NCBI GenBank assembly: GCA_046497275.1
Contig: JAWOFX010000080.1
Location: forward strand, 1 to 32,000
Direction of reading: 5' to 3'
Length of the DNA: 32,000 nt
DNA from: Promethearchaeia archaeon
GTDB lineage: Archaea; Asgardarchaeota; Lokiarchaeia; Sigyniarchaeales; SOKP01
The notes under the pieces were generated by a model. It worked only from the letters and a program-made list of their open reading frames with translations. It did no database searches and was not told where the DNA came from. The position numbers and the translations under genes were made by a program. How positions within the stretch are numbered: position 1 is the stretch's first letter; the number at the start of each line of letters is the position of its first letter. This document shows positions 131 to 32,000 of the stretch, in pieces.

Positions 131-2458
131 ATGAATAAACAATTACTAAAGGAGGCAGTTCTGAATACTCCTATACTCTCTCTAAAAGTGCCATTAAATT
201 ATACTAAGGCCATTCGCGAAGCTCCAGGAAGACCGATGATACTTAGACAAGCGCAAGGCTTTCAATACACGTTGGAAGATTTACCGATTATTATACGAGA
301 AGATGAACTAATTGTTGGAACTTTTGATGAAGATATCCCTGTTGCTATTCCTAGACCAGAATCTTCTGGTTTGAGAATTTTAAAAGAGTTAGATATGCTT
401 CCACAAAGACTAGTAAACCCAGTTAGAGTCAGAGAGAAAGATAAAAAAACATTCAAAGAGGAACTTGCACCCTATTGGGATAATTTCAGAATTGAAACAT
501 ACGCCCATGAAATAGCACCAAGTGAAGTTTTTGAAGGATTTTTTAGTGGAGGTGCTTATGTACCGACTGAGGTAGGAGGAATTGCTCATGCTGTGTTAAG
601 TTATCCAAGACTTTTATCTAAAGGATTGAAGGCATATATATCTATAGCCAAGGAAAAAATAGAATACTATAAAGATTTACTAGGTAAGCTTCCTGGTGCA
701 GATAAAAAGATATCATTTTACAAGTCAATTAAAATTGTTGGACAAGCATTAATTGATTTTGCTTTAAGATATTCAAAAAAAGCAAAAGAGATGGCTGAAG
801 CAGAAACCGATAAAATTAGAAAATTAGAATTAGAAACAATTTCAGAAGTCTGTAAAAATGTTCCGGCTAATCCCGCCAAAAATTTTTATGAAGCTATTCA
901 ATTTATCTGGTTTATACATATGGCAGTTCATATTGAGAATTTTGAACATGGAATTTCATTTGGTCGATTGGATCAATATCTTAAAAAATATTATATTAAA
1001 GATTCTCAATTAGCGATCCGCTTATTAAAAAATCTATTTTTAAAAACTAATGAGATTATAGCTCTGTATGACTCTATCGCCACACAATATTTCGGAGGAA
1101 TGGCAACTACCCAAAATGTGCTTATAGGTGGGATTGATAGTGAAGGAAATGATGCCACTAACGAATTAACCTATCTTATTTTAGACGCGTTTGAAGAAAT
1201 TGGTGTTCCAAGTCCAAATGTGGTCGTAAGATGTCATGAATCAACACCATCTGCATTATACAAAAGAATCGCGAACTTTTTGGCAAACGGAAAAAACCTA
1301 TTAGGACTTTATAATGATAAGGTCGTAATTGAAGCCTTAATGAAATATGGAATTCCTTTAGAAGAAGCTAGAAATTATGGTGTAGTAGGTTGTGTTGGAT
1401 TATCTACATCAGGTACATCTTTTGATAATACAGGAGCTATTTTTTTAAGTTTACCAAAAGCATTAGAATGTTCATTAGGAATAGATAAAACCATAATTCA
1501 TAAGATCATTGAGAATCATCACATGCCAAATAGATATAATTCAATTGATGATCTTATTACCTCATTTGAAGAATGTTTAAGATCTATCATGGAATTATCA
1601 ATTAAGGCGGGGAATGCTTTCCAACAAGCTCATCGAGAATTAAAACCTGCTCCTTTGATGTCATTATGTATTGATGGATGTTTTGAGAAGGGGAAAGACG
1701 TAAATAAGGGTCCAGCCAAATATAATTTTTCAGGGATACATACAACGGGGTTTTCTGATGTTGTTGATTCTTTAGCTGCTATTGATAAGGCGGTTTTCAA
1801 GGAAAAAAAGTTCACTATGAATGAATTAATTAAGGCTTTAAAAAAGAATTTCAGAAAGAATGAAATAATGAAACAATATTTAGAGAAAAAATGCCCTAAA
1901 TACGGTTCAGATAATGAAAATGTAGATAGAATCGCCAAAAGAGTTGCTCAAAGTATAAGAAATGCAGTGAAAGGTTTTAAATGTGATAGAGGAGATGATT
2001 ATCGGGTTGGAATACATGCAATGACAACCCATGTGGGATTTGGAGTTTTTACTAATGCCTTACCATCGGGCAGAAAAAAAGGGGAACCTCTCACTAAAGA
2101 TATTGCTCCTGGAAATTCGAGTGAAAAAGGATTGACCGCAGTTATTAAAAGTATTACTAAAATAGATCATTCTTTATTCGGTAATGGTTTAGCATGTACT
2201 CTTAATATAAATCCTGAAATAGCTAGGATTGAGGATGGGAATATTATTGAATCCCTTTTGAGGACATATTTTAAATTAGGAGGCTCCCATATACAATTTA
2301 ATGCAATTTCACCCACTAAATTAAAAAAGGCGCAAGAAAATCCAAATAAATATAAAAATCTCATGGTGAGAGTTTCGGGATATAGTGCACGATTTATAGA
2401 TTTACCCAAAGGAGTACAAGATGATATAATTTCAAGATATTGTTATGGAAATGTATAA
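131..2458 (+). CDS. Glycyl radical enzyme (PFL2/eliminase-like superfamily), substrate unknown
   Basis: 775 aa. C-terminal glycyl-radical loop LMVRVSGYS (Gly750, codon 2378). Cys loop YGVVGCVG (Cys421, codon 1391). Family motifs DELIVG, ISFGRLDQYL, QNVLIGG, GRKKGEPL and HIQFN. Cognate activase immediately downstream. Confidence 0.93.
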   Translation: MNKQLLKEAVLNTPILSLKVPLNYTKAIREAPGRPMILRQAQGFQYTLEDLPIIIREDELIVGTFDEDIPVAIPRPESSGLRILKELDMLPQRLVNPVRVREKDKKTFKEELAPYWDNFRIETYAHEIAPSEVFEGFFSGGAYVPTEVGGIAHAVLSYPRLLSKGLKAYISIAKEKIEYYKDLLGKLPGADKKISFYKSIKIVGQALIDFALRYSKKAKEMAEAETDKIRKLELETISEVCKNVPANPAKNFYEAIQFIWFIHMAVHIENFEHGISFGRLDQYLKKYYIKDSQLAIRLLKNLFLKTNEIIALYDSIATQYFGGMATTQNVLIGGIDSEGNDATNELTYLILDAFEEIGVPSPNVVVRCHESTPSALYKRIANFLANGKNLLGLYNDKVVIEALMKYGIPLEEARNYGVVGCVGLSTSGTSFDNTGAIFLSLPKALECSLGIDKTIIHKIIENHHMPNRYNSIDDLITSFEECLRSIMELSIKAGNAFQQAHRELKPAPLMSLCIDGCFEKGKDVNKGPAKYNFSGIHTTGFSDVVDSLAAIDKAVFKEKKFTMNELIKALKKNFRKNEIMKQYLEKKCPKYGSDNENVDRIAKRVAQSIRNAVKGFKCDRGDDYRVGIHAMTTHVGFGVFTNALPSGRKKGEPLTKDIAPGNSSEKGLTAVIKSITKIDHSLFGNGLACTLNINPEIARIEDGNIIESLLRTYFKLGGSHIQFNAISPTKLKKAQENPNKYKNLMVRVSGYSARFIDLPKGVQDDIISRYCYGNV

Positions 2459-3407
2459 TGAGAATAAAGAATTGAAAAATATGTCTGAAACAAAAGGATT
2501 AATATTTAATATTCAAAGATTTTCTTTACATGATGGACCGGGTATTCGAACCACTATTTTTTTGAAAGGTTGTTCTTTAAAATGTCTTTGGTGCCATAAT
2601 CCTGAGGGAATCAACCAATCAAAAGAACTTCTTTATAAATCTTTTAGTTGTATGCATTGTGAAAGATGTATTGAAATTTGTCCGAATAGCGTATTCTCTC
2701 TTACTGAAAATCAACTATTTATTAATAGAAACGATTGTGATCTATGTGGAATCTGCATTGAAAAATGCCCAACAAAATCTATTGAAATTTGTGGGCTACC
2801 TATTTCTGTTAGTGAGTTAATCAATGAAGTTATGACAGATAAAGAATTCTATTTATCATCTAAGGGAGGAATAACGATCTCTGGAGGTGAACCAATGATG
2901 CAGTTTACTTTTCTAAAGCAGTTAATTATAGAATTAAAAAAACATAATATCCATGTATGCTTAGATACCAGCGGATATGCAAAGAGAGATAAATTTAGGG
3001 AGATTTTGGATTTGATTGATATGGTATTATTTGATGTGAAAACATTAGATAATGAAAGGCATAAAAGATTAACTGGGGTATCTAATGAACTAATTTTGAA
3101 CAACATGAAAGAATGCTCGAATTCTAATATTGATATCATTATTAGAACTCCTATTATTATTGGATATAATTTTATAGATATTGAAAATGAACTACGAGAA
3201 CATCTCAAAAATTTAATGGAAATGGGTTTTAAAAATTTTGAATTAATTCCATATCATAGTTTTGGAGAACAGAAATATAAGATGTTAGGAAAACCTTATA
3301 GAATTAAAATTGATTCTAATGAATCTGATATAATTAGAGGGACTGCTGAGGATTTAAATAGAGAGTTTGAAGTAAATATAAAAGTAAGTTACCCGATTTT
3401 AACATAA
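2445..3407 (+). CDS. Glycyl-radical enzyme activating enzyme (radical SAM, with ferredoxin-like insert)
   Basis: FNIQRFSLHDGPGIRTTIFLKGC followed by CxxxCxxC (CSLKCLWCH). Two CxxCxxCxxxC motifs (CMHCERCIEIC, CDLCGICIEKC), SGGEP and DTSG. Overlaps the GRE stop codon; the true start could be 2445, 2451 or 2481. Confidence 0.93.
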   Translation: MEMYNENKELKNMSETKGLIFNIQRFSLHDGPGIRTTIFLKGCSLKCLWCHNPEGINQSKELLYKSFSCMHCERCIEICPNSVFSLTENQLFINRNDCDLCGICIEKCPTKSIEICGLPISVSELINEVMTDKEFYLSSKGGITISGGEPMMQFTFLKQLIIELKKHNIHVCLDTSGYAKRDKFREILDLIDMVLFDVKTLDNERHKRLTGVSNELILNNMKECSNSNIDIIIRTPIIIGYNFIDIENELREHLKNLMEMGFKNFELIPYHSFGEQKYKMLGKPYRIKIDSNESDIIRGTAEDLNREFEVNIKVSYPILT

Positions 3408-6828: not shown

Positions 6829-8796
6829 TTGATTGGTAATTTAAATATAAACTCTTTTAAACTACGCAAAGAATTTTTGGATAAATATAAAGGGAAACAA
6901 CCAGATTGGGGGCCTTTAGGATACTTCACTTATAAAAGAACATATGCTCGATATATTCACGATCATGAAAGAAAAGAAGAATATTGGGAAACTGTGAAAA
7001 GAGTTGTTGAAGGATGTTTTTCGATTCAAAAAGAACATTATCATGATTTAAAATTGCCTTGGGATGAGAATAAAGCTATGAGTTCCGCAGAGAAAATGTA
7101 TGAAAAGATTTGGAATTTTAAATTTACACCACCAGGGAGAGGATTTTGGATTATGGGAACTAAATTTATCGCAGAGCAAGGCTCGATGGCATTAAATAAC
7201 TGCGGATTCGTTTCAACTAAAGATATTGATATAAAAAATACCCAACCATTTGAATTTCTTATGTATTCTTTAATGGTTGGTGTTGGGGTTGGGTTTGATA
7301 CGAAAGGTGCTGGAAAAATTAAAATAAAGCAACCAAGTGAGAGACATAAAAAATTCACTATTCCAGATAGTAGAGAAGGATGGGTGAACGCTCTCAAGAA
7401 ATTACTGGAGGCATATTTTACTGGAAATGAAAAGCCGGAATTTGGTTTTTCAGAAATTCGTCCAAAAGGAGAACCACTTAAAAGCTTTGGTGGGGTAGCG
7501 TCAGGACCAGAACCACTTAAAAATATGCTAAATGATATAAATACCTTATTAAAGAGTAAAATAGGAGAACCTATAGGGGCTTTAGATATTCTAGACATCA
7601 TGAACCTCATAGGAAAGTGTGTGGTTGCTGGTGGAGTTAGAAGAAGTGCAGAAATTGCATTAGGGAAACCAGAGAATAAAAAATTTATAAAGGCAAAACA
7701 AAATAAAGAGAAACTACAAGATCACAGATGGGTGAGTAATAACAGTATAATAGCCAAAAAAGGTATGGATTATTCTTTTGTAGCGGAACAGATTTCCAAA
7801 AATGGAGAACCAGGTATTTTTTGGTTAGAAAATGCCCAAAATTATTCCCGTATGGGTGATCCTCCTGATAATAAGGATAAAAAGGCTTTAGGAATCAACC
7901 CATGCGGAGAGCAAACATTAGAATCTTTTGAACTGTGTTGTTTGGCGGAAGCCTATCCCTCTCGACATAATAGTTGGAAAGAATTTAAAGAAACTTTAAA
8001 ATATGCATATTTATATGCCAAAACGGTCACATTGGTGAATACTCATGTTAAGGTTACGAATGCGGTTATGCTTAAAAACAGAAGAATGGGTATATCTCAG
8101 ACGGGAATTACTGAAGCGTTTACTAAACATGGAAAAAATAAGATGATTGATTGGTGCAAAAAAGGGTATTCCTATTTAAAAAAATTAGATAAAAAATATT
8201 CAGATTGGCTCTGTGTACCAGAATCAATAAAAATTACGACTATTAAACCAAGCGGAACTGTTAGTCTTCTTCCCGGTGTTTCTCATGGAATACATTTTCC
8301 TCACTCTAAATATTATATAAGAAGAATCCGTATTCAAGAAACCTCTGAACTTATTGATATTGCGAAAACTGCGGGTTATAAGGTGGTTAAAGATAAATAT
8401 TCTGATAACACTATGTTAATTGAATTTCCAGTAAAAAAAGAATATTTCACAAGAGGAAAAAGGGATGTGACTATTTGGGAACAAGCAGAAAACGCAGCTA
8501 TGTATCAAAAATACTGGTCCGATAATCAAGTATCCGTGACGATAACTTTTAAGGAAGAGGAAAAAAAAGATATTAAATATATTCTTCAAAGTTATGAAGA
8601 TAAGCTAAAAGCCGTGGCATTTCTTCCCTTAAAAGAACATGGGTATGAACAAGCTCCTTATGAAGAGATTTCAGAAAAAAAATATAAAGAGCTTTCAAAA
8701 GTTCTTAAACCATTATATTTAGATAAATTAAAAGAACAAGCGAGAGGTCAGATTTTCTGCGATTCAGAGGAATGTGAGATACATTTAAACAAATAA
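6829..8796 (+). CDS. nrdJ: Adenosylcobalamin-dependent (class II) ribonucleotide reductase, monomeric RTPR type, no ATP cone
   Basis: TYKRTYAR, FTPPGRG, LNNC, GVGVGFD, GGVRRSAEI, NPCGEQ (Asn/Cys/Glu finger loop), NRRMG, TTIKPSGTVS and C-terminal redox pair CDSEEC. TTG start after GAGG. Confidence 0.93.
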   Translation: MIGNLNINSFKLRKEFLDKYKGKQPDWGPLGYFTYKRTYARYIHDHERKEEYWETVKRVVEGCFSIQKEHYHDLKLPWDENKAMSSAEKMYEKIWNFKFTPPGRGFWIMGTKFIAEQGSMALNNCGFVSTKDIDIKNTQPFEFLMYSLMVGVGVGFDTKGAGKIKIKQPSERHKKFTIPDSREGWVNALKKLLEAYFTGNEKPEFGFSEIRPKGEPLKSFGGVASGPEPLKNMLNDINTLLKSKIGEPIGALDILDIMNLIGKCVVAGGVRRSAEIALGKPENKKFIKAKQNKEKLQDHRWVSNNSIIAKKGMDYSFVAEQISKNGEPGIFWLENAQNYSRMGDPPDNKDKKALGINPCGEQTLESFELCCLAEAYPSRHNSWKEFKETLKYAYLYAKTVTLVNTHVKVTNAVMLKNRRMGISQTGITEAFTKHGKNKMIDWCKKGYSYLKKLDKKYSDWLCVPESIKITTIKPSGTVSLLPGVSHGIHFPHSKYYIRRIRIQETSELIDIAKTAGYKVVKDKYSDNTMLIEFPVKKEYFTRGKRDVTIWEQAENAAMYQKYWSDNQVSVTITFKEEEKKDIKYILQSYEDKLKAVAFLPLKEHGYEQAPYEEISEKKYKELSKVLKPLYLDKLKEQARGQIFCDSEECEIHLNK

Positions 8797-21377: not shown

Positions 21378-21908
21378 ATGCAAAATAAAATCTTAACCTG
21401 GCAAATTATTGGAGGATTTTTTATTATTCTTTTTGGATCTTTTTTACATTTTCTTTTCGAATTATCTGGAAATTTCCCTCCAGTTGGAGCCATTAGTGCT
21501 GTAAATGAAAGCGTTTGGGAACATTTGAAATTAGGATTTTGGCCTTTAGTGTTTTTTGGAATTATCGAATATAAATATATAAAAAAAGATACTCAAAATT
21601 TCTTCCTTGCTAAGTTTCTTTCTGCAATTCTAATAGTGACGATAATTATTGTTTTTTTTTACAGTTATACAGCAATACTTGGTGAAAATATCCTTTTTTT
21701 GGACATTTTTAGTTTTGTATTATCCGTATTTGTTGGTCAGACTGTAAGCTATAAATTGCTAAATACTTCAAATTTTTCAAAAAATATAAATTATTTATCA
21801 ATGCTAGGTATTTCCATTTTGGGGTTACTATTTATTATTTTTACCTACTTTCCTCCACAAATACCTTTATTTCAAGATTCTTTAACCGGTTTATATGGAA
21901 TAGCTTAA
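21378..21908 (+). CDS. DUF6512-like integral membrane protein
   Basis: Five hydrophobic segments; LHFLFE and NESVWEHLKL motifs recalled from DUF6512. Confidence 0.7.
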   Translation: MQNKILTWQIIGGFFIILFGSFLHFLFELSGNFPPVGAISAVNESVWEHLKLGFWPLVFFGIIEYKYIKKDTQNFFLAKFLSAILIVTIIIVFFYSYTAILGENILFLDIFSFVLSVFVGQTVSYKLLNTSNFSKNINYLSMLGISILGLLFIIFTYFPPQIPLFQDSLTGLYGIA

Positions 21909-22023: not shown

Positions 22024-23796
22024 ATGAAAAAATGGCATGTTAATGAAGAGAAAGTATGGTTTAAAAAATGGTGGCCAGAAGAAGTAAAGAAAAATCTAAC
22101 TTTTGAGTCACTTAGTTTAGGAGAGTTTTTTGAACGACAGAGAGAGAAATATGGAGATTTGAATATGATGTGGTTCTTGGAAACATGGATGACATATGAA
22201 GAAGCTGGTGAGATGATTGATTCTTTAGCAACTGCACTTTATGATTTAGGATTAAGAGAAGGAGATTGCGTCGCTTTATTATTACCAAATAGTTTCCAAT
22301 ATGTAATTAGTTTTTATGCATGCGCAAAAATCGGTGTAATTGCTACTGGGATAAATCCCACCTATAAACCTCTGGAAGTCTTACATCATATTGAACTCAC
22401 TGAAGCGAAAGCATTAATTCTTTTAGATGCTCTTTATGACGAATTAATAAAACCAATCATCTCAAAAGTAGAAATGGAATTTATAATATCAACTAACATC
22501 GCAGATCTTGCCTCTGGGATATCTTCGGCATTGAAGTTTATTGGTAAACTGGTTGGAAAAATTCCTAAAGGAAAAGTTGATTTTAAACCTACTTATGATT
22601 TCATGGAGTTGCTAAATACTCCCGCTAAATTACCTTACGCTTCTTTTGACCCAACTGAGCATACTGGAACTTATATCATGACGGGAGGTACCACAGGCGT
22701 GCCTAAGGCAACAAATCTAACCCATTTTAATGTTGTCTCAAATGCGATTCAATGTGTGGAGTGGTTGGGAGGAGAGCAGCCTGGAATCGCAGATCTAGGA
22801 GTATTACCATTATTTCACTCCTTCGGATTGACAGCGGTAATGAACGCATGTATCGGTCTTGGAGGATGGATGATGCTCTTTCCACGACCACCAGAAACGG
22901 AAGAATTAGTTAAAACGATTGAAAAGTTACCCGCTCCTCAAGGTGTTGCATATGTAGGTGCAGAAATTCTTTTCAAAAGATTAGCAGAATTTGAAGATTT
23001 GGATAAATATGATATTATGGGAAAGATTAGGAAATGTATTTCTGGTGCAGGCCCACTTCATGCACCTGTTCAGGAATCGTTTCAAAAAAACACGGGAGGG
23101 AAAATAGTAGAAGGATATGGTCTTTCTGAAGCTAGTCCCGTTGTTAGTTCTGGCAGTTTATTCGGAGAGAGTCCTTTAGGTAATATTGGAATGCCCATTC
23201 CTGGAACAGATTGGGCTATCTTTGATTCGAATGCTGATGATTTAGGAGATGGACCAATCGCTGATGGACTTCCTGAATCGAAATATGGTGAAGAAAACAC
23301 CGGTGAAATATGTGTATGTGGTCCACAAGTAATGAAAGAGTATCTTAATAGACCCGAGGAGACCGCTGCTACTCTTCAAGAATGGGATGGCAGAATTTGG
23401 CTTCGAACAGGGGATATTGGTTTTATGAGAGATGATGGGTTAATAACTATTAGAGATAGGAAAAAACAATTGATTAAAATGTCCGGACATTCAGTATTCC
23501 CTAAAGAAGTCGAAGAATTTTTAATGAAAAATGAAGCAGTAAATGAAGCGGCTGTCGCAGGTTTACCAGATCCGGAAGGTAAAGTTGGGGAGATAATTAA
23601 AGCATGGGTAGCCTTAGAATCTGAATATGAAGGAAAAATTACGGAGCAGGAATTAATTAATTGGTGCGTTAAAAATATGACCAAGTGGAAGGTACCAACG
23701 CAGATTGAATTTATTCCAGAAGTACCTAAAAATGTCTTAGGAAAAGTACAGAGAAGAGCACTTCAAGAAGCAGATCCATTATATAAAAAAGAGTAA
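22024..23796 (+). CDS. Long-chain acyl-CoA synthetase-like AMP-binding enzyme
   Basis: P-loop MTGGTTGVPKA, VLPLFHSFG, EGYGLSEASP, TGDIG, IRDRKKQLIK and terminal LGKVQRR. Confidence 0.9.
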   Translation: MKKWHVNEEKVWFKKWWPEEVKKNLTFESLSLGEFFERQREKYGDLNMMWFLETWMTYEEAGEMIDSLATALYDLGLREGDCVALLLPNSFQYVISFYACAKIGVIATGINPTYKPLEVLHHIELTEAKALILLDALYDELIKPIISKVEMEFIISTNIADLASGISSALKFIGKLVGKIPKGKVDFKPTYDFMELLNTPAKLPYASFDPTEHTGTYIMTGGTTGVPKATNLTHFNVVSNAIQCVEWLGGEQPGIADLGVLPLFHSFGLTAVMNACIGLGGWMMLFPRPPETEELVKTIEKLPAPQGVAYVGAEILFKRLAEFEDLDKYDIMGKIRKCISGAGPLHAPVQESFQKNTGGKIVEGYGLSEASPVVSSGSLFGESPLGNIGMPIPGTDWAIFDSNADDLGDGPIADGLPESKYGEENTGEICVCGPQVMKEYLNRPEETAATLQEWDGRIWLRTGDIGFMRDDGLITIRDRKKQLIKMSGHSVFPKEVEEFLMKNEAVNEAAVAGLPDPEGKVGEIIKAWVALESEYEGKITEQELINWCVKNMTKWKVPTQIEFIPEVPKNVLGKVQRRALQEADPLYKKE

Positions 23797-23964: not shown

Positions 23965-24768
23965 TTATTCTTTCTGTTTTTTGGGTGGGAGGGGTATAAA
24001 TTGACTTGTGCGACGTTTATATTTAGCATATTCGCTATCACCTTCGAATTGTTTGTTTAATAACTTTACACCTGAAACATTGATAATCATATAAGTTATA
24101 ATAATCGGACCTATTACAGTTATGAATCCATATGGGAAATACACGTTGATCGCGATTAAAAATAATCCCCACCATTGAGTTACTTCACCAAAATAATTTG
24201 GATGTTGAGTATAACGCCATAGACCCTTATCAAATACCATTCCCTTGTTCTCAGCTTTACTCAAAAATTTATATAGTTGAAAATCACCCACCGATTCAAA
24301 ATAAAATCCAATTATCCAAACGCCAATGCCTATTAAATCAAACCACCAAAAAGGCGGATTATCAATTACATTAATAAATGTAACTGGTGAAACTACTAAA
24401 AAGAGAATAAGACCTTGGAAAAGATAAATACGCAATAAGCTATTAATCAGAACTTTATCTCCCCACCGTTCTCTCATATTTTGATACCTTTTATCTTCAC
24501 CTTTGCCCCAGTTTCTAATCATCACATATGTTGCTAATCTCAATCCCCAAATAGTTACTATAATAGTAACCATTATTTGTCTGAGTGCAAATGTTCCTTT
24601 CAATAGAAATGTAGACCATGCTACAAGTATAAAACCTCCACCATAAAATATATCCATTACAGAATTATCTTTTTTTATTGCACCGACAAGAAAAGCTAAG
24701 AACAAATATCCTAGTAAAAATAATCCAGTCCAGCCGAGAATTTGTAAAATCTCTAAAAGCATTTCCAT
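23965..24768 (-). CDS. DUF1295 (steroid 5-alpha-reductase-like) membrane protein
   Basis: DNSVMDIFYG, WGLRLA, GEDKRY, FESVGDFQL and GLWRYTQHPNYFGE. Confidence 0.88.
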   Translation of the reverse strand: MEMLLEILQILGWTGLFLLGYLFLAFLVGAIKKDNSVMDIFYGGGFILVAWSTFLLKGTFALRQIMVTIIVTIWGLRLATYVMIRNWGKGEDKRYQNMRERWGDKVLINSLLRIYLFQGLILFLVVSPVTFINVIDNPPFWWFDLIGIGVWIIGFYFESVGDFQLYKFLSKAENKGMVFDKGLWRYTQHPNYFGEVTQWWGLFLIAINVYFPYGFITVIGPIIITYMIINVSGVKLLNKQFEGDSEYAKYKRRTSQFIPLPPKKQKE

Positions 24769-24956: not shown

Positions 24957-25808
24957 CTAATTCTTTTTTGGTAATTTCTCTTTATCTTTTCGTTTTACAT
25001 ACACAAGATCATATTTTTCCTTAAGTGATTCAATATCTTCAGAATCACCAATTAAATATTCAAGATTATCTTCATAAAATCGATTTTTTTTAAATTTTTT
25101 AGCGGGAACACCTAAATAAATCCATCCCGGTTCAAGTTCCTGTCCGACTGTAGTAACAGAACTGGCTGCTAGAATACAATTTTCTCCGATTTTCGTTCCC
25201 GGCATAACAATTGAGTGGCTTCCAATTATAACTTTATCTTCAATTTTAGTTTTTCTAATAATAAATAAATCTCCTGCAATTAATGCGGATTGAACAATAC
25301 TCCCCTCTCCTATAGTAACATTTTTACCCATTTCAATAAATTCTGTATCTACCCATCCTTCAAAAAGAGAATTTGAAAATTTTGTTTTTACTCCAAACAT
25401 TTTAAAGCAAAGATTATCTAAGAAAGGAAAAGGAAATTTATGTGAAAGCCATATTGGCCATTTTTTAATAGTATTACGAATACTCCAATAACGATAATCT
25501 TTATCCATCTTATCTCGTAAAAATGTTCCCACACGAGGTTTATGAATAAAATTTACACCCCATATTAATATTTTAGCAAAAATGAGGGAAATCACTACTA
25601 TTGAAATATACATTATTATTATCAAAAGTGGTAATAAGAAAATAAATAGTATTGCATCATTGATCAATAATTTATAATAGATCCAGAATTCAAATTGTAT
25701 GGTGAACACACTTATCCAGAAGAGAAATATATAAAATAATAGGTATCTCTTCTTCACAAGAACATTCGATGTAAAAGGACCGACCTTTAATGAAGCTGGT
25801 TTTGACAT
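24957..25808 (-). CDS. 2-TM + LbH hexapeptide-repeat protein, type A, copy 1
   Basis: Two hydrophobic helices, then HKPRVGTF..DYRYWSIR, hexapeptide coils (GKNVTIGEGSIV; EDKVIIGSHSIVMPGTKIGENCIL) and GWIYLGVPA. ATG 25808 (track start is GTG 25817). Confidence 0.8.
   Translation of the reverse strand: MSKPASLKVGPFTSNVLVKKRYLLFYIFLFWISVFTIQFEFWIYYKLLINDAILFIFLLPLLIIIMYISIVVISLIFAKILIWGVNFIHKPRVGTFLRDKMDKDYRYWSIRNTIKKWPIWLSHKFPFPFLDNLCFKMFGVKTKFSNSLFEGWVDTEFIEMGKNVTIGEGSIVQSALIAGDLFIIRKTKIEDKVIIGSHSIVMPGTKIGENCILAASSVTTVGQELEPGWIYLGVPAKKFKKNRFYEDNLEYLIGDSEDIESLKEKYDLVYVKRKDKEKLPKKN
25336..25442. repeat. 107-bp near-identical repeat, copy 1 (partner 28791-28897)
   Basis: Manual alignment gives 104/107 identity; the three mismatches are synonymous. 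Lies inside the type A genes. Confidence 0.9.
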
Positions 25809-25834
25809 TATAATCACTTTTAATTATTATAGAT

Positions 25835-26737
25835 TTAATTAATCTCTTCTTCTTCCTCGATATTTATTTTTTCTTCCACTAAGTATTTTGTTTCCTCATC
25901 CACATCTTTTTTATATACCATACCAGTTCTTATCTCTGAATATCTATTAGGTCTAAGCTTTGAAGCGGGAATTCCAAAATAAACCCATCCAGGCTCTAAT
26001 TCTTGATTATAATTTGTTGTGCTGAAAGCTCCTATAATCGTTTCCTTTCCAACTTTCGTTCCTGGGGCGATATTTGAAACTCCTCCAATAACAGTGTAGT
26101 TTTCAAAAATTACTTTTTTAATTATTAGATATTTCCCCACAATCATGGAACTCATAATTGTCGCTCCCTGTCCGACTGTCACCTTATGTTTAAATTCTAT
26201 AAATTCTGGATCGACCCACGCATCAAACATATGACTTGAAAAATCAACTTTTAATCCAAAATACTTAAAACCCAAAATATCAAGCCAAGGAATCGGAGAA
26301 TTATCAAACCACCAAATTACAAATTTTTTAAGTTGAATTCTAAGACACCAAAATTCATAGTCTTTATTACTCTTTTCAGCGATGAAAATTCCCTCCCTTG
26401 GTTTATGGATCAAATTAAGAATAATCAAGATTGATTTTCCCACAATTATTACAGCAATTAATATAATAAAATACGAGGCAAATATGGCCACTGGGATAAG
26501 TATTATTTGTAAGAGAGGACTAAATTCTAAAATCAAAAAATAATTTGCCCAAAAAATTGCTATCAAAAATGAACCTAACCAGAAAATTGGAAGGAGTATT
26601 AAACTATATTTATATTGCATAGATTTTATCGCACTGGTAGTAACAAAATCAATTTCTAATTCAGATAATCCATGACTTTTTGGTAATATTAATTCATCAG
26701 TCTTACCTTGCTTTTGTTTTTTCTCTATTTCAGTCAT
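25835..26737 (-). CDS. 2-TM + LbH hexapeptide-repeat protein, type B, copy 1
   Basis: Two TM helices; HKPREGIF..DYEFWCLR; SSHMFDAW; SSMIVGKYLIIK; hexapeptide coils; GWVYFGIPA. Confidence 0.8.
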   Translation of the reverse strand: MTEIEKKQKQGKTDELILPKSHGLSELEIDFVTTSAIKSMQYKYSLILLPIFWLGSFLIAIFWANYFLILEFSPLLQIILIPVAIFASYFIILIAVIIVGKSILIILNLIHKPREGIFIAEKSNKDYEFWCLRIQLKKFVIWWFDNSPIPWLDILGFKYFGLKVDFSSHMFDAWVDPEFIEFKHKVTVGQGATIMSSMIVGKYLIIKKVIFENYTVIGGVSNIAPGTKVGKETIIGAFSTTNYNQELEPGWVYFGIPASKLRPNRYSEIRTGMVYKKDVDEETKYLVEEKINIEEEEEIN

Positions 26738-27644
26738 TATAACTTTTACTTTTTTTTGTAGTTTTCAATTTCTGATTTTTCACGTGCTCTAATTCTTCTT
26801 TTGTGACTCCTAAATATTCTGCAGCCTTTCTTGAAAATGCTCTTCTTAAAGGGACTCCAAAATAATAATTGTCCCCCTTGAGAATGCTATGTTTAGTTGC
26901 ACCTGCCATTGGTAATAAATAGGAATTATCATTAATCTCTACTCCTGGAGCGATACAGTTTAGAGCAGAAGCGGTCACGTTGTCTCCTGCCCTAATTTTA
27001 AAGTATGCTACGTTACCAAAAGTCCCATCAACAGCGTGAGAACTAAATCCTGAATTCACCCCAATATATGAATTTTCTCCAATCTCGATAAATTTATCTG
27101 CCCCAAATTGTTCTTCTAATGTAGTACCTTTTCCTATCTTATTTGTTCCAACAAAATTATAAAGCCAATTAATCAACCAAGGAAAAGGACCCTTATTAAA
27201 TGCATGCTTTGGATATTTTATGAGAAAACTACGGATATGGTATAAGTTCAATGTTTTACTAGGAATATTTCTGGGAATAATCCCATTCTTGGATGGTCTT
27301 ATCTTTTCTGTAAGTTTCCACCAATATTTAGTTATCAGGGCTACAAAAAATAAATGTATCAAATAACATAGGATAATAATCAATGGTAAAAATATAGAAG
27401 CTAGAAGCGCTCTAATGTCAAGAAATATGGTAATAAAATTATTCGCTTTCAAAAAAAAGGGAATATAAAGGAACATTAAATACAACCAGAGGATAAGTCC
27501 TGGGAAAAACCAAGATATTAGATAAGATGTACCAAATCCTAAAATATACCAATGAAACTGAAGATTTATTTCCGTTTTTTCTACGTCAAGCTTTTTTTTC
27601 TTTTTCTCTTCTGAATTTGTTTTTTTAGTATCATTTTTTAACAT
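26730..27644 (-). CDS. 2-TM + LbH hexapeptide-repeat protein, type C, copy 1 (putative acyltransferase)
   Basis: Two TM helices; GIIPRNIPSKT..LYHIRSFL.KYPK; IGKGTTL, IGENSYIGVNS, SSHAVDG and YYFGVP. Stop overlaps the type B start by 8 nt. Confidence 0.8.
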   Translation of the reverse strand: MLKNDTKKTNSEEKKKKKLDVEKTEINLQFHWYILGFGTSYLISWFFPGLILWLYLMFLYIPFFLKANNFITIFLDIRALLASIFLPLIIILCYLIHLFFVALITKYWWKLTEKIRPSKNGIIPRNIPSKTLNLYHIRSFLIKYPKHAFNKGPFPWLINWLYNFVGTNKIGKGTTLEEQFGADKFIEIGENSYIGVNSGFSSHAVDGTFGNVAYFKIRAGDNVTASALNCIAPGVEINDNSYLLPMAGATKHSILKGDNYYFGVPLRRAFSRKAAEYLGVTKEELEHVKNQKLKTTKKSKSYND

Positions 27645-27707
27645 AAAATATCTCGAGGCTAATTAAGTACATTATTCATTTTTTCTTATAGTTTTTATGT
27701 TAAAGCT

Positions 27708-27720
27708 ATTTATAAGGTTT
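27708..27720 (-). promoter_or_regulatory. Putative BRE/TATA element for LbH cassette copy 1
   Basis: Minus strand AAACCTTATAAAT, about 64 nt upstream of ATG 27644. Confidence 0.3.
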
Positions 27721-27801
27721 ATTTTTATGGATCGAAAAAAGTATTATGAAGATAATTAAAATGCGAAAATAAGATTTAAAATATAAGATTGGATGAAATT
27801 T

Positions 27802-28275
27802 TCATTCAGATTGTTTAATCCACTTTAAAATATCTTCACTCTTTTTAGGAAAGATTTCTTTCAAAATTTCTATTCCAACTTTTTGTACTCTAGAATTCTC
27901 ATCTGAGAGAACAGAACTTTCCAAGATATTAAAAACTTTATCTTTATTCAAATCCAATAATTTCAGAGCTTCTAAACTTAATATTCGTATATCAGGGTCA
28001 TTATTATTCACAATAAAATATTCTAATAAATCTATAGTTTGATCTTCTGTATATTCTTTTGTTGTGAAATAATGATAAACGTCTGCTACGCTTAAGTTTT
28101 TATTCATAAATTCTAATGTATCTTGATATAAAATAGTTTCAAATTCTCCTTGAAAAAAGTAATTGCATTCATGATTTTCAGGTAATCTATGAATATGGCA
28201 ATATGTCTTACCACAATATTTGCATCGGAATGGAATTTTTTGGATTTCCTTATTGCAGTAGAAGCATTTTGTCAT
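27802..28275 (-). CDS. AN1-type zinc finger fused to a HEAT-like helical module
   Basis: C-x2-C-x9-C-x2-C-x4-C-x2-H-x5-H-x-C (CFYC...CKYC...CHIHRLPENHEC). C-terminal DPDIRILSLEAL...DENSRVQKVGIEIL HEAT-like pair. Confidence 0.82.
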   Translation of the reverse strand: MTKCFYCNKEIQKIPFRCKYCGKTYCHIHRLPENHECNYFFQGEFETILYQDTLEFMNKNLSVADVYHYFTTKEYTEDQTIDLLEYFIVNNNDPDIRILSLEALKLLDLNKDKVFNILESSVLSDENSRVQKVGIEILKEIFPKKSEDILKWIKQSE

Positions 28276-28381
28276 TTCAAATCTTGAATAACATGAATCA
28301 ATATTTCTTTTTATTGTTATAAGTTATGATTATCCTTTATTTAATACAAACGAACTTGGGAAAAAACCTAAACGATTAAAT

Positions 28382-29269
28382 CTAATCTTCTCTCTCATGA
28401 CGCGGTTTTAGTTGCTCAATATAAGAAACATGCTCCTCTTGATGTTTTCTGTAATATTTTTTGTACACTTCTTCCAATCTTTCCTCTGTTTCTGCTCTAA
28501 ATTGAATTTTATCTTCTAAACCATCTTCAAAAAAGCGATTCTTTTTAAATTTTTTTGCGGGACAACCATGATAAATCCACCCTTCTTCTAACTCTTGACC
28601 TATAGTGGTAAGGGACCAAGTACTTAAAGCAACCTTTTTTCCTATATGAGTTCCCGGCATAACAACAGAATGTGTTCCGATTCTGACATCATCCTCAATA
28701 ATAGTTTTACGAATAATCAGTAAATTCCCCATAATTACAGCCGATTGAATGTGTGATCCTTGACCTACAACAACATTCTCTCCGAATTCGATAAATTCTG
28801 TATCTACCCATCCTTCAAAAAGAGAATTTGAAAATTTTGTTTTGACTCCAAACATTTTAAAGCAAAGATTATCTAAAAAGGGAAAAGGAAATTTATGAGC
28901 TAACCACACTGGCCATCTTTTTATTGTATTTCGAATGCACCAATAACAATAATCTTTATCATTTCTATCTCGTAAAAATGTACCTTCTTTTGGTTTATGA
29001 AGAGTATTAACGATACTTAAAAGGAATCTTGCTAAAATTAATGAGATTAATACTAATTCCACATAGCAGAGAAAAGCAAATAATGGTAAATATATATAAA
29101 AATGAATAGGTCTATTATAATCCCATGTTAATTGCCAATATCCCCAGAATTGAAGCATAATTGGAATAATTGTTGCCCAAATTAAAAAAATATAAAGCAA
29201 TAGATATCTTTTCTTAGGTAATTCTGTAGGAGCAAACGGTCCTACTCTCATACTAGTTGGTACACTCAT
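28382..29269 (-). CDS. 2-TM + LbH hexapeptide-repeat protein, type A, copy 2
   Basis: Shares a 37-aa identical block (HKFPFPFLDNLCFKMFGVKTKFSNSLFEGWVDTEFIE) with type A copy 1, and the same architecture. Confidence 0.8.
   Translation of the reverse strand: MSVPTSMRVGPFAPTELPKKRYLLLYIFLIWATIIPIMLQFWGYWQLTWDYNRPIHFYIYLPLFAFLCYVELVLISLILARFLLSIVNTLHKPKEGTFLRDRNDKDYCYWCIRNTIKRWPVWLAHKFPFPFLDNLCFKMFGVKTKFSNSLFEGWVDTEFIEFGENVVVGQGSHIQSAVIMGNLLIIRKTIIEDDVRIGTHSVVMPGTHIGKKVALSTWSLTTIGQELEEGWIYHGCPAKKFKKNRFFEDGLEDKIQFRAETEERLEEVYKKYYRKHQEEHVSYIEQLKPRHERED
28791..28897. repeat. 107-bp near-identical repeat, copy 2 (partner 25336-25442)
   Basis: Manual alignment gives 104/107 identity; the first 53 nt are identical. 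Confidence 0.9.
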
Positions 29270-29285
29270 TTGATTATCACATCGG

Positions 29286-30155
29286 TTACACTAAATCTTT
29301 CTTATCTTCTTCTATATTCACTTCTTTTTTAATTTCTATTTTTTCTTCTTCATCAATTTTCTTTTTAATAATAATATCTCGTGTTTTAATCGCATGTTCA
29401 TTAGGTTTTAACTTTCGAGCAGGAATTCCAGCATAAATCCACCCTGGACTCAATATTTGATTAAATGCAGTACTACCGGCAGCGCCTATAACGGATTCTT
29501 CCCCTAAAATTGTTCCTGGAGCAACCGTTGATTGCCCCCCAACCACTGTGTGGTTATCTAAAATTACTTCCTTAATTATTAAATATTTTCCTACTACCAT
29601 GCTTGACATTACCACTGCACCTTGACCGACCATTACTCCTCTTCCAAATTTAACGAATTCAGCATCACACCAAGCATCAAAGAGATGGCTTGATGTATCT
29701 ATCTCCATCCCGAACCATTTAAAAGCTAATATATCTACCCATGGAAGTGGCCAATTATTAAAAAGCCAAAGCACAAGTTTCTTTATTTCAATTCGTAAAC
29801 ACCAAAATTCAAAATCATTATCACCCAGTTCTGCTTTAAAAATTCCCTCTTTTGGTTTATGTAGAAGATTTACTAATATTAACAATAACTTACTAAAAAT
29901 AACACAGGCGAATGTAAAGATCGTTAACATCGCTAAAATATGTGCTGGAAGAAGAAGGAAGAAGACAATAATTCCGCTCCAATGTGGTTGGTAAAACCAC
30001 CAATATATCAATGTGATCATCCCACTTAACCAAATGATAGGTAAATAGACTAATAAAAATTTTAAATTTATTCGACTAATGGCTGAGGAAGTAATAAAAT
30101 TTACTAAATATTCCTCTTCTTCATCTTGCTCTTCTTTTTTATTATTTTCCTCCAT
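29286..30155 (-). CDS. 2-TM + LbH hexapeptide-repeat protein, type B, copy 2
   Basis: HKPKEGIF..DFEFWCLR, SSHLFDAW, SSMVVGKYLIIK and GWIYAGIPA; colinear with type B copy 1. Confidence 0.8.
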   Translation of the reverse strand: MEENNKKEEQDEEEEYLVNFITSSAISRINLKFLLVYLPIIWLSGMITLIYWWFYQPHWSGIIVFFLLLPAHILAMLTIFTFACVIFSKLLLILVNLLHKPKEGIFKAELGDNDFEFWCLRIEIKKLVLWLFNNWPLPWVDILAFKWFGMEIDTSSHLFDAWCDAEFVKFGRGVMVGQGAVVMSSMVVGKYLIIKEVILDNHTVVGGQSTVAPGTILGEESVIGAAGSTAFNQILSPGWIYAGIPARKLKPNEHAIKTRDIIIKKKIDEEEKIEIKKEVNIEEDKKDLV

Positions 30156-30156
30156 C

Positions 30157-31062
30157 TTAATCGGCTTTTTCTTTTTTTTGTGTTTGTTTTTCTTCTAATT
30201 TTTCGGCTCTTTCAAGATCTTCATCAGTCAAATCTAAGAATTTTTTTAATTTACGTGAAAACAATTTTCGAATAGGCATACCAAAATAATAATATCCTCC
30301 TTTTGCTACTGTAAACTTCAGAGTCGCAGATCCAGGAAAGACATATGAATTATCTCCTAATTCTGTCCCAGGAGCTAAAGGAGATTCAGCACCAACCGTG
30401 CAATTATCCCCTAATTTAACTTTGAAATAGTAAATATTCCCAAAAATTCCCTCTACAAGATGACTTGCTAATGAAGCATTTGGACCAACATAACAGTTCT
30501 TTCCTGTTATTGCAAATCTATCTCCACATACTTCCTCTTCTACGGTAGTTCCTTTTCCATAATCAGTTGATCCTATGAAATTAAACATCCATGTAAAAAG
30601 CCAGGGAAACATACCCTTCATTATAGTGTTTTTTGGATATTTCAATAAAAATGACCGAATATGGTATAATGAAGCAGTTTTACTGGGTATATTTCGTGGA
30701 ATCACCCCATCTTTAGCTGGAGATATTTTTTGGGTAAATCCATACCAAAATTTCGTTACCGCAGCAGCAAAGAAAATATGTAAGAAAGCACATAGTATTA
30801 AAACAATTGGAAAAAATAAGAGAGAAAGCAAAGGTTCTAATTCTGTGAAGATTAAAATAAAATTAGATGTATCTAAAAAATATGGTACAAAAAATAAAAA
30901 TATGTATAAGAAAAATAAAATCCCAGGAATAACCCAAGAAATGAAATAAACAGTGACGAATCCAATAATATACCAATGCCACTTTATTGGCTGTTCTCTC
31001 TTTATTATATCCAGATCCTCATTATTATCTTCTTGCTCTTGATTATTTGAATCTTTTTTCAA
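30157..31062 (-). CDS. 2-TM + LbH hexapeptide-repeat protein, type C, copy 2 (putative acyltransferase)
   Basis: GVIPRNIPSKT..LYHIRSFLLKYPK, ASHLVEG, LGDNCTVG and YYFGMP. TTG start; ends 1 nt before the type B ATG. Confidence 0.8.
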   Translation of the reverse strand: MKKDSNNQEQEDNNEDLDIIKREQPIKWHWYIIGFVTVYFISWVIPGILFFLYIFLFFVPYFLDTSNFILIFTELEPLLSLLFFPIVLILCAFLHIFFAAAVTKFWYGFTQKISPAKDGVIPRNIPSKTASLYHIRSFLLKYPKNTIMKGMFPWLFTWMFNFIGSTDYGKGTTVEEEVCGDRFAITGKNCYVGPNASLASHLVEGIFGNIYYFKVKLGDNCTVGAESPLAPGTELGDNSYVFPGSATLKFTVAKGGYYYFGMPIRKLFSRKLKKFLDLTDEDLERAEKLEEKQTQKKEKAD

Positions 31063-31483: not shown

Positions 31484-32000
31484 TTGACGAATAAATCATT
31501 CTCTCTCGAAGATCTCTATCCTAAATATGTAATAAATAGTAAAGGAGAGAAAATTCCATTCGAGGAGACCAAAATTGCCACCGTTTTAAATAGAGAGACG
31601 GGTCTCGATATGCACATAGCCGAGAGTATAGCCGAGGATGTTTTAAGAAAGGTTATCGGTTTAGGGGTTGATGAAATCACTACTAATCACCTTAGAGAAC
31701 TAGTTTGTGTTGAGCTTACTCAAAGAGGTATGAATAAATATCGAAATCTATTCGCGAGAGCAATCAATTTAGAAAATATTAGTTTTAAGCTAGATGATCA
31801 ATTTATTGAGAAATATAAACATAAACAACCAGATTGGGGTCCTCTCGGACACTTCACTTATAAAAGAACATATGCGAGAATAATTGAGAAGGAAGGGAGA
31901 AAAGAAGAATTCTGGGAAACCATTAGAAGAGTAGTTGAAGGATGCTATTCTATTCAAAAAGAACATTGTATGAAGCTAAGTTTACCTTGGGATACTGAAA
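31484..32000 (+). CDS. nrdJ: Second class II ribonucleotide reductase with N-terminal ATP cone (5' part, truncated by window end; not in ORF track)
   Basis: TTG 31484 after GAGGAG; open frame to the window end. ATP-cone-like YVINSKGEKIPFEETKI..L.RETG...A..IA..V...ITT..LRELV..EL..RG, then SFKL...KQPDWGPLGHFTYKRTYAR...WET..RVVEGC..IQKEH. That stretch is 51/71 aa identical to the N-terminus of the 6829 enzyme. Confidence 0.88.
   Translation, partial: MTNKSFSLEDLYPKYVINSKGEKIPFEETKIATVLNRETGLDMHIAESIAEDVLRKVIGLGVDEITTNHLRELVCVELTQRGMNKYRNLFARAINLENISFKLDDQFIEKYKHKQPDWGPLGHFTYKRTYARIIEKEGRKEEFWETIRRVVEGCYSIQKEHCMKLSLPWDTE

Follow-up and report, generated by a model that had tools for sequence, protein, structure and literature searches.

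The 32,000-nt stretch of DNA analysed here (the window; contig JAWOFX010000080.1 of the Promethearchaeia assembly GCA_046497275.1) carries two copies of a three-gene cassette whose products combine a transmembrane hairpin with a left-handed beta-helix (LbH). All six genes, checked as open reading frames (ORFs), lie on the minus strand, and their ORF calls give the transcription order C2, B2, A2, an AN1 zinc-finger gene, C1, B1 and A1, in which the letters denote three protein types. Cassette 2 opens with C2 (30157-31062, 301 aa), followed by B2 (29286-30155, 289 aa) and A2 (28382-29269, 295 aa); cassette 1 opens with C1 (26730-27644, 304 aa), followed by B1 (25835-26737, 300 aa) and A1 (24957-25817, 286 aa). 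The junctions are tight: the start of B1 overlaps the stop of C1 by 8 nt, B2 begins 1 nt past the C2 stop in a different frame, and gaps of 16 nt and 17 nt separate B2 from A2 and B1 from A1, respectively. The last gap widens to 26 nt if A1 begins at the ATG at 25808, giving 283 aa. Judged from the sequence, this is more likely the true start, because the protein then agrees with the database copy (P0001) and, in its MSVP N-terminus, with homologues.

Each of the six proteins contains two long hydrophobic helices (residues 23-51 and 55-91 in the AlphaFold2 (AF2) model of A1), a linker and an LbH. Pfam Hexapep matches were obtained for all six, exceeding the gathering score (27 bits) in A1 and A2 only and falling slightly below it in C2. 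In the family alignments, HKP.EG.F, W..R, GIIPRN and Y.G.P form conserved columns, and the six long transmembrane helices that three subunits contribute together are highly conserved. The HKP.EG.F motif follows the second transmembrane helix, as in A2, where its histidine is H91 (codon 28997-28999). By BLASTP, A1 and A2 are 61% identical, B1 and B2 48-49%, and C1 and C2 47-49%, compared with 36-41% between types A and B and 19-29% between either of these and type C. Each type is therefore much nearer to its counterpart than to its cassette neighbours. An earlier note on this DNA had described the six ORFs, their twofold C-B-A order and close spacing, the two helices, hexapeptide beta-helix and motifs, and the kinship of counterparts, all of which our ORF calls, family alignments and identities bear out. 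Databases annotate the cassette proteins as hypothetical or 'DapH/DapD/GlmU-related', and our literature searches found no publication on these archaeal proteins.

A1 and A2 also share a 90-nt tract (25332-25421, minus strand, in A1; 28787-28876 in A2) that is identical at 88 of 90 nt, compared with 65% identity for the two genes overall. Identity at third codon positions is 0.90-0.95 within the tract versus ~0.3-0.5 elsewhere, and no comparable conversion-like tract was found in the B1/B2 or C1/C2 pairs. This pattern probably reflects recent gene conversion between the two type-A genes.

The triplet is conserved and its members are naturally fused

The source genome (G000; 3.85 Mb in 188 contigs, 98.9% complete) holds at least three further cassettes on contigs other than that of the window, giving at least five loci in all, where the earlier note had assumed a system kept in two versions. 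Contig C102 encodes an A-C fusion together with B, and contig C94 encodes the same pair, with the fusion interrupted by the contig end. A two-gene cassette on contig C17 (10453-12037) carries the LbH histidine described below in its upstream protein only, and contig C9 (7860-8654) carries a lone C-like gene with that histidine. By their sequences, the latter two loci may represent simpler, two-type or homomeric versions.

We surveyed 151 genomes of the phylum, sampled from GTDB. Strong matches were present in 25 of 25 genomes of the window's own family and in both genomes of its sister family, usually with ~10 matches per genome. The remaining families yielded no match or weak matches only; in four of these other Asgard families the weak matches are dispersed single-unit genes rather than triplets. 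Single-unit relatives also occur in metagenome-assembled genomes (MAGs) of Helarchaeota and Nanoarchaeota, and the cultured Lokiarchaeum ossiferum carries a homologue (NEF87_002202).

To describe gene order, every ORF was classified at 20 loci from 18 related Lokiarchaeal genomes. At all 20 loci, types A, B and C occur together in the cyclic order C-B-A; they are encoded by three genes, by a C-B fusion (~605-633 aa) with A behind it, or by an A-C fusion with B behind it. A further arrangement, B plus A-C, is known from database proteins (the context of P0121); the possibility that the P0121 fusion bridges two cassettes was ruled out, its context being plain B followed by A-C. A 797-aa natural chain, P0123, joins all three units in the order A-C-B and has six transmembrane helices. 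When different types are repeatedly found fused into a single chain, this is classically taken as evidence of co-assembly. Together with the complex prediction and the fused-chain model described below, the synteny and the fusions indicate that A, B and C very probably form one heteromeric complex, as the earlier note had suspected of a conserved triplet.

At 30153-30159, the C2 stop and the B2 start stand 1 nt apart in different frames, and the orthologues of this pair are mostly one C-B fusion protein; in most related genomes the B2 orthologue is fused to C in this way. From the sequence, C2 and B2 may be the split state of a pair that is polymorphic for fusion and fission, or a small indel may have produced the fusion of the relatives.

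Predicted assembly of the three subunits

Complex prediction for C1, B1 and A1 gave an ipSAE of 0.84, compared with 0.36 for the best control; of the reference sets, 58 of 80 solved complexes and 2 of 110 mismatched pairs reach that mark. The partners had pLDDT values of 80 or more, and the runs agreed in at least 76% of contacts. Because solved structures include many LbH homotrimers and paralogues may pass as well, the score supports binding rather than demonstrating it, and it is compatible with homotrimers too. AF2 modelled the natural A-C-B chain P0123 with a pLDDT of 84.3 and a pTM of 0.85, from an alignment in which A-C and C-B fusions between them span all three units. The A1 monomer was modelled with a pLDDT of 82 and a pTM of 0.74, with the beta-helix present. 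In both models each unit runs through two long helices, a strand, two further helices and the beta-helix. We infer a stoichiometry of one C, one B and one A.

The cassette units are related to the Pls/PosA terminal domain

As the earlier note had proposed, the units are most closely related, among known proteins, to the terminal domain of epsilon-poly-L-lysine synthetase (Pls) and of the delta-poly-L-ornithine synthetase PosA. The corresponding family, TIGR02353, is the top NCBIfam match for A1 (E = 9.7e-13, residues 49-239), B1 (1.3e-7, residues 42-264), A2 (1.1e-12) and B2 (5.6e-10), and the A1 and B1 matches cover the transmembrane hairpin. The scores are 47.3 bits for A1, 47.2 for A2, 38.2 for B2, 30.4 for B1 and 17.9 for C2, with no match for C1. 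All six lie far below the family cut-off of 423.1 bits, as does the fused chain P0123 (54.3), whereas the true member P0260 scores 471.

We retrieved 95 Pls/PosA proteins and cut them into units for comparison. Alignment of the A, B and C profiles to Pls units with hhalign gave probabilities of 92-99% (E = 5e-7 to 4e-17) over up to 215 columns, reaching into the transmembrane helices. Foldseek comparison of the P0123 model with AlphaFold database (AFDB) clusters placed the C-terminal ~700 aa of Pls-like non-ribosomal peptide synthetases (NRPSs) at the top (E = 1e-24 to 1e-26), labelled 'carrier domain-containing' or 'AMP-binding' proteins. The A1 monomer aligned with single Pls units, transmembrane hairpin included, at a TMq of 0.52-0.61. 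An AlphaFold model of PosA has been described with the unit order of two transmembrane helices, strand, two helices and LbH (PMC10522769), which is the order found in the cassette units. Searches of the PDB by sequence (A1 and a C-type profile) and by Foldseek returned only soluble LbH enzymes and gamma-carbonic anhydrases (gamma-CAs), and no Pls-type membrane domain.

The Pls-type layout of three units, each with two transmembrane helices, linker and LbH, is thus present in split form in the window and fused in relatives. Pfam searches found neither an adenylation (AMP-binding) domain nor a carrier (T, PP-binding) domain in any of the six proteins, as the earlier note had also stated. The cassette unit is homologous to the Pls unit, transmembrane hairpin included, yet the cassette proteins are not members of the Pls family, because they have neither domain and score below its cut-off. 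The carrier domain PF00550 was found nowhere in the 98.9%-complete genome, compared with 11 of 14 control genomes, which makes a carrier-bound (thiotemplate) donor unlikely.

A search of 1.84 billion representatives with an A+B-type profile recovered P0260 (a true Pls-type NRPS), bacterial stand-alone triple-unit proteins and one triple-unit protein fused to a short-chain dehydrogenase/reductase (SDR). The group of P0260 and its relatives contains a Bodo saltans protein. Many AFDB matches of P0123 (for example A0A812QBF7, A0A7S2KSI3, X0GZE5 and A0A815JLW2) carry Pls-like triple-unit domains and are presumably eukaryotic, judging by their accession series in output that lists no organism names; they would come from protist transcriptomes, rotifers and a Fusarium species. 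A Promethearchaeum-type protein may also be among these AFDB matches. The Pls-like triple-unit module would therefore be widespread outside bacteria.

A single conserved histidine marks one unit of three

We aligned all units to one unit model and read a single beta-helix column for histidine. It is present in 36 of 36 Asgard type-C units and in none of 28 type-A or 33 type-B units, A2 and B2 included. The same asymmetry is found in Pls, where the third unit has the histidine in 95 of 95 proteins and the first and second units in none. Single-unit relatives carry it in 13 of 14 cases, and bacterial triples in the second unit in 5 of 5, with one protein each having an additional histidine in the first or third unit. 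In the window, the putative catalytic residue is His203 in C1 (codon 27036-27038) and H201 in C2 (codon 30460-30462).

By profile alignment, the type-C histidine corresponds to His115 of the galactoside acetyltransferase LacA (1kqa). In LacA and maltose acetyltransferase (MAT), this residue is the catalytic base. Since the histidine is confined to type C, a trimer of the three types would have one active site. The simplest reading of the alignment would be one catalytic subunit (C) with two degenerate partners (A and B). Types A and B retain a histidine of another kind, that of HKP.EG.F at the end of the second transmembrane helix (26 of 28 A units and 31 of 33 B units).

The Asgard triplication parallels that of Pls

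Two maximum-likelihood unit trees were built, one with 76 rows and one with 94 rows that include 12 bacterial or archaeal Pls proteins; both have long branches, and no root was inferred. In both, Asgard A, B and C fall with the archaeal single-unit proteins, apart from all Pls and bacterial-triple units, a split supported at 98/91 in the 94-row tree, and A is sister to B. Forcing all histidine-bearing units into one clade cost 289 log-likelihood units and was rejected by the approximately unbiased (AU) test (p = 3e-78). Profile similarity by hhalign is far higher within each system than across systems.

The tree split and the AU test therefore point to a parallel triplication rather than a disassembled Pls. 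The initial TIGR02353 matches (A1 on the third repeat, B1 on the second) had hinted that A, B and C might be one-to-one orthologues of Pls C3, C2 and C1, an idea that the trees and the AU test reject. On this phylogenetic evidence, the Asgard triplication is independent of that of Pls. The Asgard triplet would have arisen by its own triplication of single-unit, presumably homotrimeric, archaeal ancestors. The interpretation of the earlier note thus survives in part: the heteromeric triplet and the Pls-like units stand, while the idea of the Pls pseudo-trimer split into three chains, and that of two versions only, do not.

Neighbouring genes and the probable acyl donor

Directly downstream of A1 lies a gene for a DUF1295 membrane protein of the steroid-reductase/ICMT-like clan (23965-24768, minus strand; Pfam 8e-72). 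Homologues stand beside A1-type cassettes in at least five other genomes (loci L014, L015, L018, L019 and L027), a recurrence that hints at lipid chemistry. A FadD-like acyl-CoA ligase gene (22024-23796, plus strand; NCBIfam long-chain-fatty-acid--CoA ligase 6e-105, Pfam AMP-binding) lies 1.2 kb from A1. It is the sole AMP-binding gene near the cassettes, separate from them and on the opposite strand, and its product is a weakly linked candidate supplier of an acyl-coenzyme A (CoA) donor.

Further along is a small DUF6512 gene (21378-21908, plus strand) with homologues of 49-64% identity at seven related loci (L013, L015, L017, L018, L019, L031 and L032); the Pfam match was obtained on the L013 homologue. 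What follows DUF6512 at other Loki loci is a gene whose likeness to GH3/PaaK/AMP-binding enzymes is seen in language-model features only. At L013 (11022-12662) the gene in this position encodes a conserved Promethearchaeota protein of ~546 aa with no Pfam match, which follows DUF6512 beside cassettes of C-B fusion plus A in several genomes. Because the homologue of this GH3/PaaK-like protein in the source genome lies away from any cassette (contig C118, 23058-24704), the link between an activating enzyme and the cassettes is a weak lead, not evidence. By analogy with the family, the donor is probably a CoA thioester, given the family chemistry (a thioester donor and a histidine base) and the finding of no carrier protein.

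Between the cassettes lies the AN1 zinc-finger gene (27802-28275, minus strand; Pfam zf-AN1 2.4e-9, with a HEAT-like match below the Pfam cut-off). No homologue of it stands beside the cassettes at the 20 related loci, so its position is probably a coincidence, outside the conserved system. In another Promethearchaeota MAG, two zf-AN1 genes (L036, 1-2140) lie ~3 kb from P0123, one of them with an additional faint Peptidase_M50 match below the Pfam cut-off. The cassette neighbours at related loci (zinc alcohol dehydrogenase, DUF6512, C-N hydrolase, UvdE and leucine-rich-repeat genes) form no coherent pathway.

The rest of the window holds housekeeping genes. Ribonucleotide-reductase-like genes lie at 6829-8796 and 31484-31999, the second running past the window end; its homologues (744-748 aa, 81-83% identical) flank cassettes at L014 and L027. 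At 131-3407, a gene for a glycyl-radical enzyme (PFL-like plus Gly_radical, 775 aa) overlaps that for its radical-SAM activase by 14 nt.

Discussion

We consider it probable, with appreciable room for doubt, that each cassette encodes a heterotrimeric, membrane-embedded LbH acyltransferase with one active site, Pls-like in build and separate in origin. In such an enzyme, made up of one C, one B and one A subunit, every subunit would run from a hairpin of two long transmembrane helices through a short strand and a pair of helices into a left-handed beta-helix of five turns. These three beta-helices would be grouped about a pseudo-threefold axis on the cytoplasmic side, on top of a membrane bundle of six helices, in the layout modelled for the Pls/PosA terminal domain. 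The C subunit alone would supply the general-base histidine of LacA/maltose-type enzymes, lost in A and B, which would form non-catalytic walls both of the single active site and of the bundle in the membrane. As donor we expect a CoA thioester, possibly made by a free-standing acid-CoA ligase, with its pantetheine arm chemically equivalent to the carrier arm of Pls. The acceptor would be a membrane-associated or exported molecule.

Several points weigh against this reading. Superposition of P0123 on AFDB Pls models is poor, with template-modelling (TM) scores of 0.24-0.26. The ring arrangement may therefore differ from that of Pls, and the low value could reflect either a different ring handedness or loosely packed AFDB models. 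Foldseek matched only the beta-helix part to PDB entries (AntD, MAT and LacA among them), and our PDB and literature searches found no solved structure of two transmembrane helices joined to an LbH. The pass of C1, B1 and A1 in complex prediction may be due in part to LbH homotrimers that the model remembers, and paralogues could pass in the same way. Types A and B keep their own conserved HKP histidine, for which this reading offers no role. At the 20 loci we also observed five orphan C-B fusions 1-2 kb from a full cassette, and two C-C-B-A arrays; with the lone C-like gene, these suggest that the subunit ratio or the choice of partners may vary more than a 1:1:1 complex would imply. Finally, the idea of a CoA donor draws on family analogy and on a neighbouring ligase that is not conserved, and the GH3-like gene that neighbours cassettes in other genomes has no cassette close to it in the source genome.

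A bolder version, which we hold to be unlikely, makes the triplet a carrier-independent membrane polymerase or translocating acyltransferase, in which a ligase-activated acid would build or decorate a surface polymer or isoprenoid lipid through the six-helix bundle. Polymerase activity of the cassettes is pure speculation.

Unlikely, by a similar judgement, is a true Pls-type polymerase in pieces, which would turn an amino acid or bifunctional acid into a secreted polyamide with the help of a free-standing activating enzyme. The kinship of the units to the Pls/PosA polymerisation domain and the common one-histidine asymmetry would suit it, as would the adenylate-forming enzyme at 22024-23796, the GH3/PaaK-like genes at other Loki loci and the AMP-binding gene beside a bacterial triple. 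Against this stand the lack of a PP-binding domain anywhere in the 98.9%-complete genome and the FadD-like, fatty acid-CoA nature of the nearby ligase, which is not an amino-acid adenylation domain. TIGR02353 scores, moreover, reach at most 47 bits in the six proteins and 54 in the fused chain, compared with a cut-off of 423. The independent triplication means that function need not be common, and the neighbours of the bacterial triples (GT1, SDR and sugar-nucleotide genes) look like glycolipid or glycan chemistry, not polyamide synthesis.

LbH enzymes are typically homotrimers, and A, B and C could in principle be three independent homotrimeric membrane acetyltransferases with different substrates, clustered by tandem duplication only. 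Single-unit relatives in other archaea, the lone C-like gene and the orphan C-B fusions fit this picture, which we regard as very unlikely: trimers of A (histidine in 0 of 28) or of B (0 of 33) would lack a base of the LacA type, neither the fixed cyclic order nor the repeated independent fusions (A-C-B among them) are easily accounted for without co-assembly, and the fused chain is modelled as one pseudo-trimer (pTM 0.85). Least likely of all is a non-enzymatic scaffold, channel or sensor with the LbH trimer as a cytoplasmic cap, comparable to the gamma-CA-like subunits on plant complex I: two of the three subunits are catalytically degenerate, complex I gamma-CA subunits are among the PDB matches and the six long transmembrane helices are highly conserved, but the LacA-aligned histidine, invariant in type C (36 of 36) and in the third Pls unit (95 of 95), argues for retained catalysis, and the closest relative with a characterised function, Pls, is itself an enzyme (PMC10522769).

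If the bolder version, a carrier-independent polymerase or translocator, were true, a design of one catalytic and two degenerate units would have evolved from homotrimers at least twice, in the lineage of Pls and the bacterial triples and in Lokiarchaeia, and the triplet would offer a dissectable three-gene model for the unsolved mechanism of Pls polymerisation. We know of no solved structure of, and no established mechanism for, the lysine- or ornithine-polymerising membrane domain of Pls/PosA.

For the heterotrimeric acyltransferase that we favour, the units lie in separate genes, each open to expression, mutation and swapping on its own. The one-histidine pattern marks a likely single active site and, in the cassettes as in Pls, a residue to mutate. 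According to the tree, the change from a homotrimeric membrane LbH enzyme to an asymmetric machine of three parts happened more than once, which makes it a clean example of parallel subfunctionalisation. In Lokiarchaeia, the cassettes amount to a universally kept, multi-copy predicted membrane enzyme (all 25 genomes of the family, at least five loci in this genome, and cultured strains), which may act on envelope or lipid chemistry. We contribute the histidine count over 95 Pls proteins, the AU test and the contrast between single units and triplets across Asgard families.

Comparison with known systems

The one-histidine asymmetry is common to the cassettes and Pls. Both build their units from two transmembrane helices, a linker strand with P..G, two helices and an LbH of five turns, and both have three units per assembly, one of them with the LbH histidine. 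The cassettes differ in being spread over three (or two) genes, whereas Pls is one chain with adenylation and carrier domains. Their histidine unit comes first in gene order (in the middle of the A-C-B fusion), rather than last as in Pls, and their triplication is phylogenetically independent, with scores far under the family cut-off.

The bacterial stand-alone triples (the Elusimicrobiota protein MBK8576353.1, that is P0271, with P0192, P0204 and P0270, and the SDR-fused P0218) resemble the cassettes in having no carrier and three units of two transmembrane helices plus LbH, the histidine lying in the second unit in all five. They differ in being single chains of 650-683 aa whose units group with Pls, not with the Asgard units, in the tree. 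Next to them lie GT1, SDR, GMC oxidoreductase and dTDP-sugar genes and, in one case, an AMP-binding gene.

LacA, maltose O-acetyltransferase and AntD have in common with the cassettes the LbH fold, Hexapep repeats, the C-type histidine at the position of His115, a terminal G.P motif and, probably, a thioester (CoA) donor. They are soluble homotrimers with three equivalent active sites, whereas the cassette proteins add a transmembrane hairpin and linker to each subunit, are of three unlike types and have the histidine in one. The gamma-CA trimer of mitochondrial complex I (CA/CAL) is likewise a paralogous LbH heterotrimer on a membrane complex with some subunits degenerate. Its relation to the cassettes is limited to the LbH fold: the gamma-CA subunits have no conserved transmembrane hairpins of their own, and they carry a zinc site in place of an acyl-transfer histidine.

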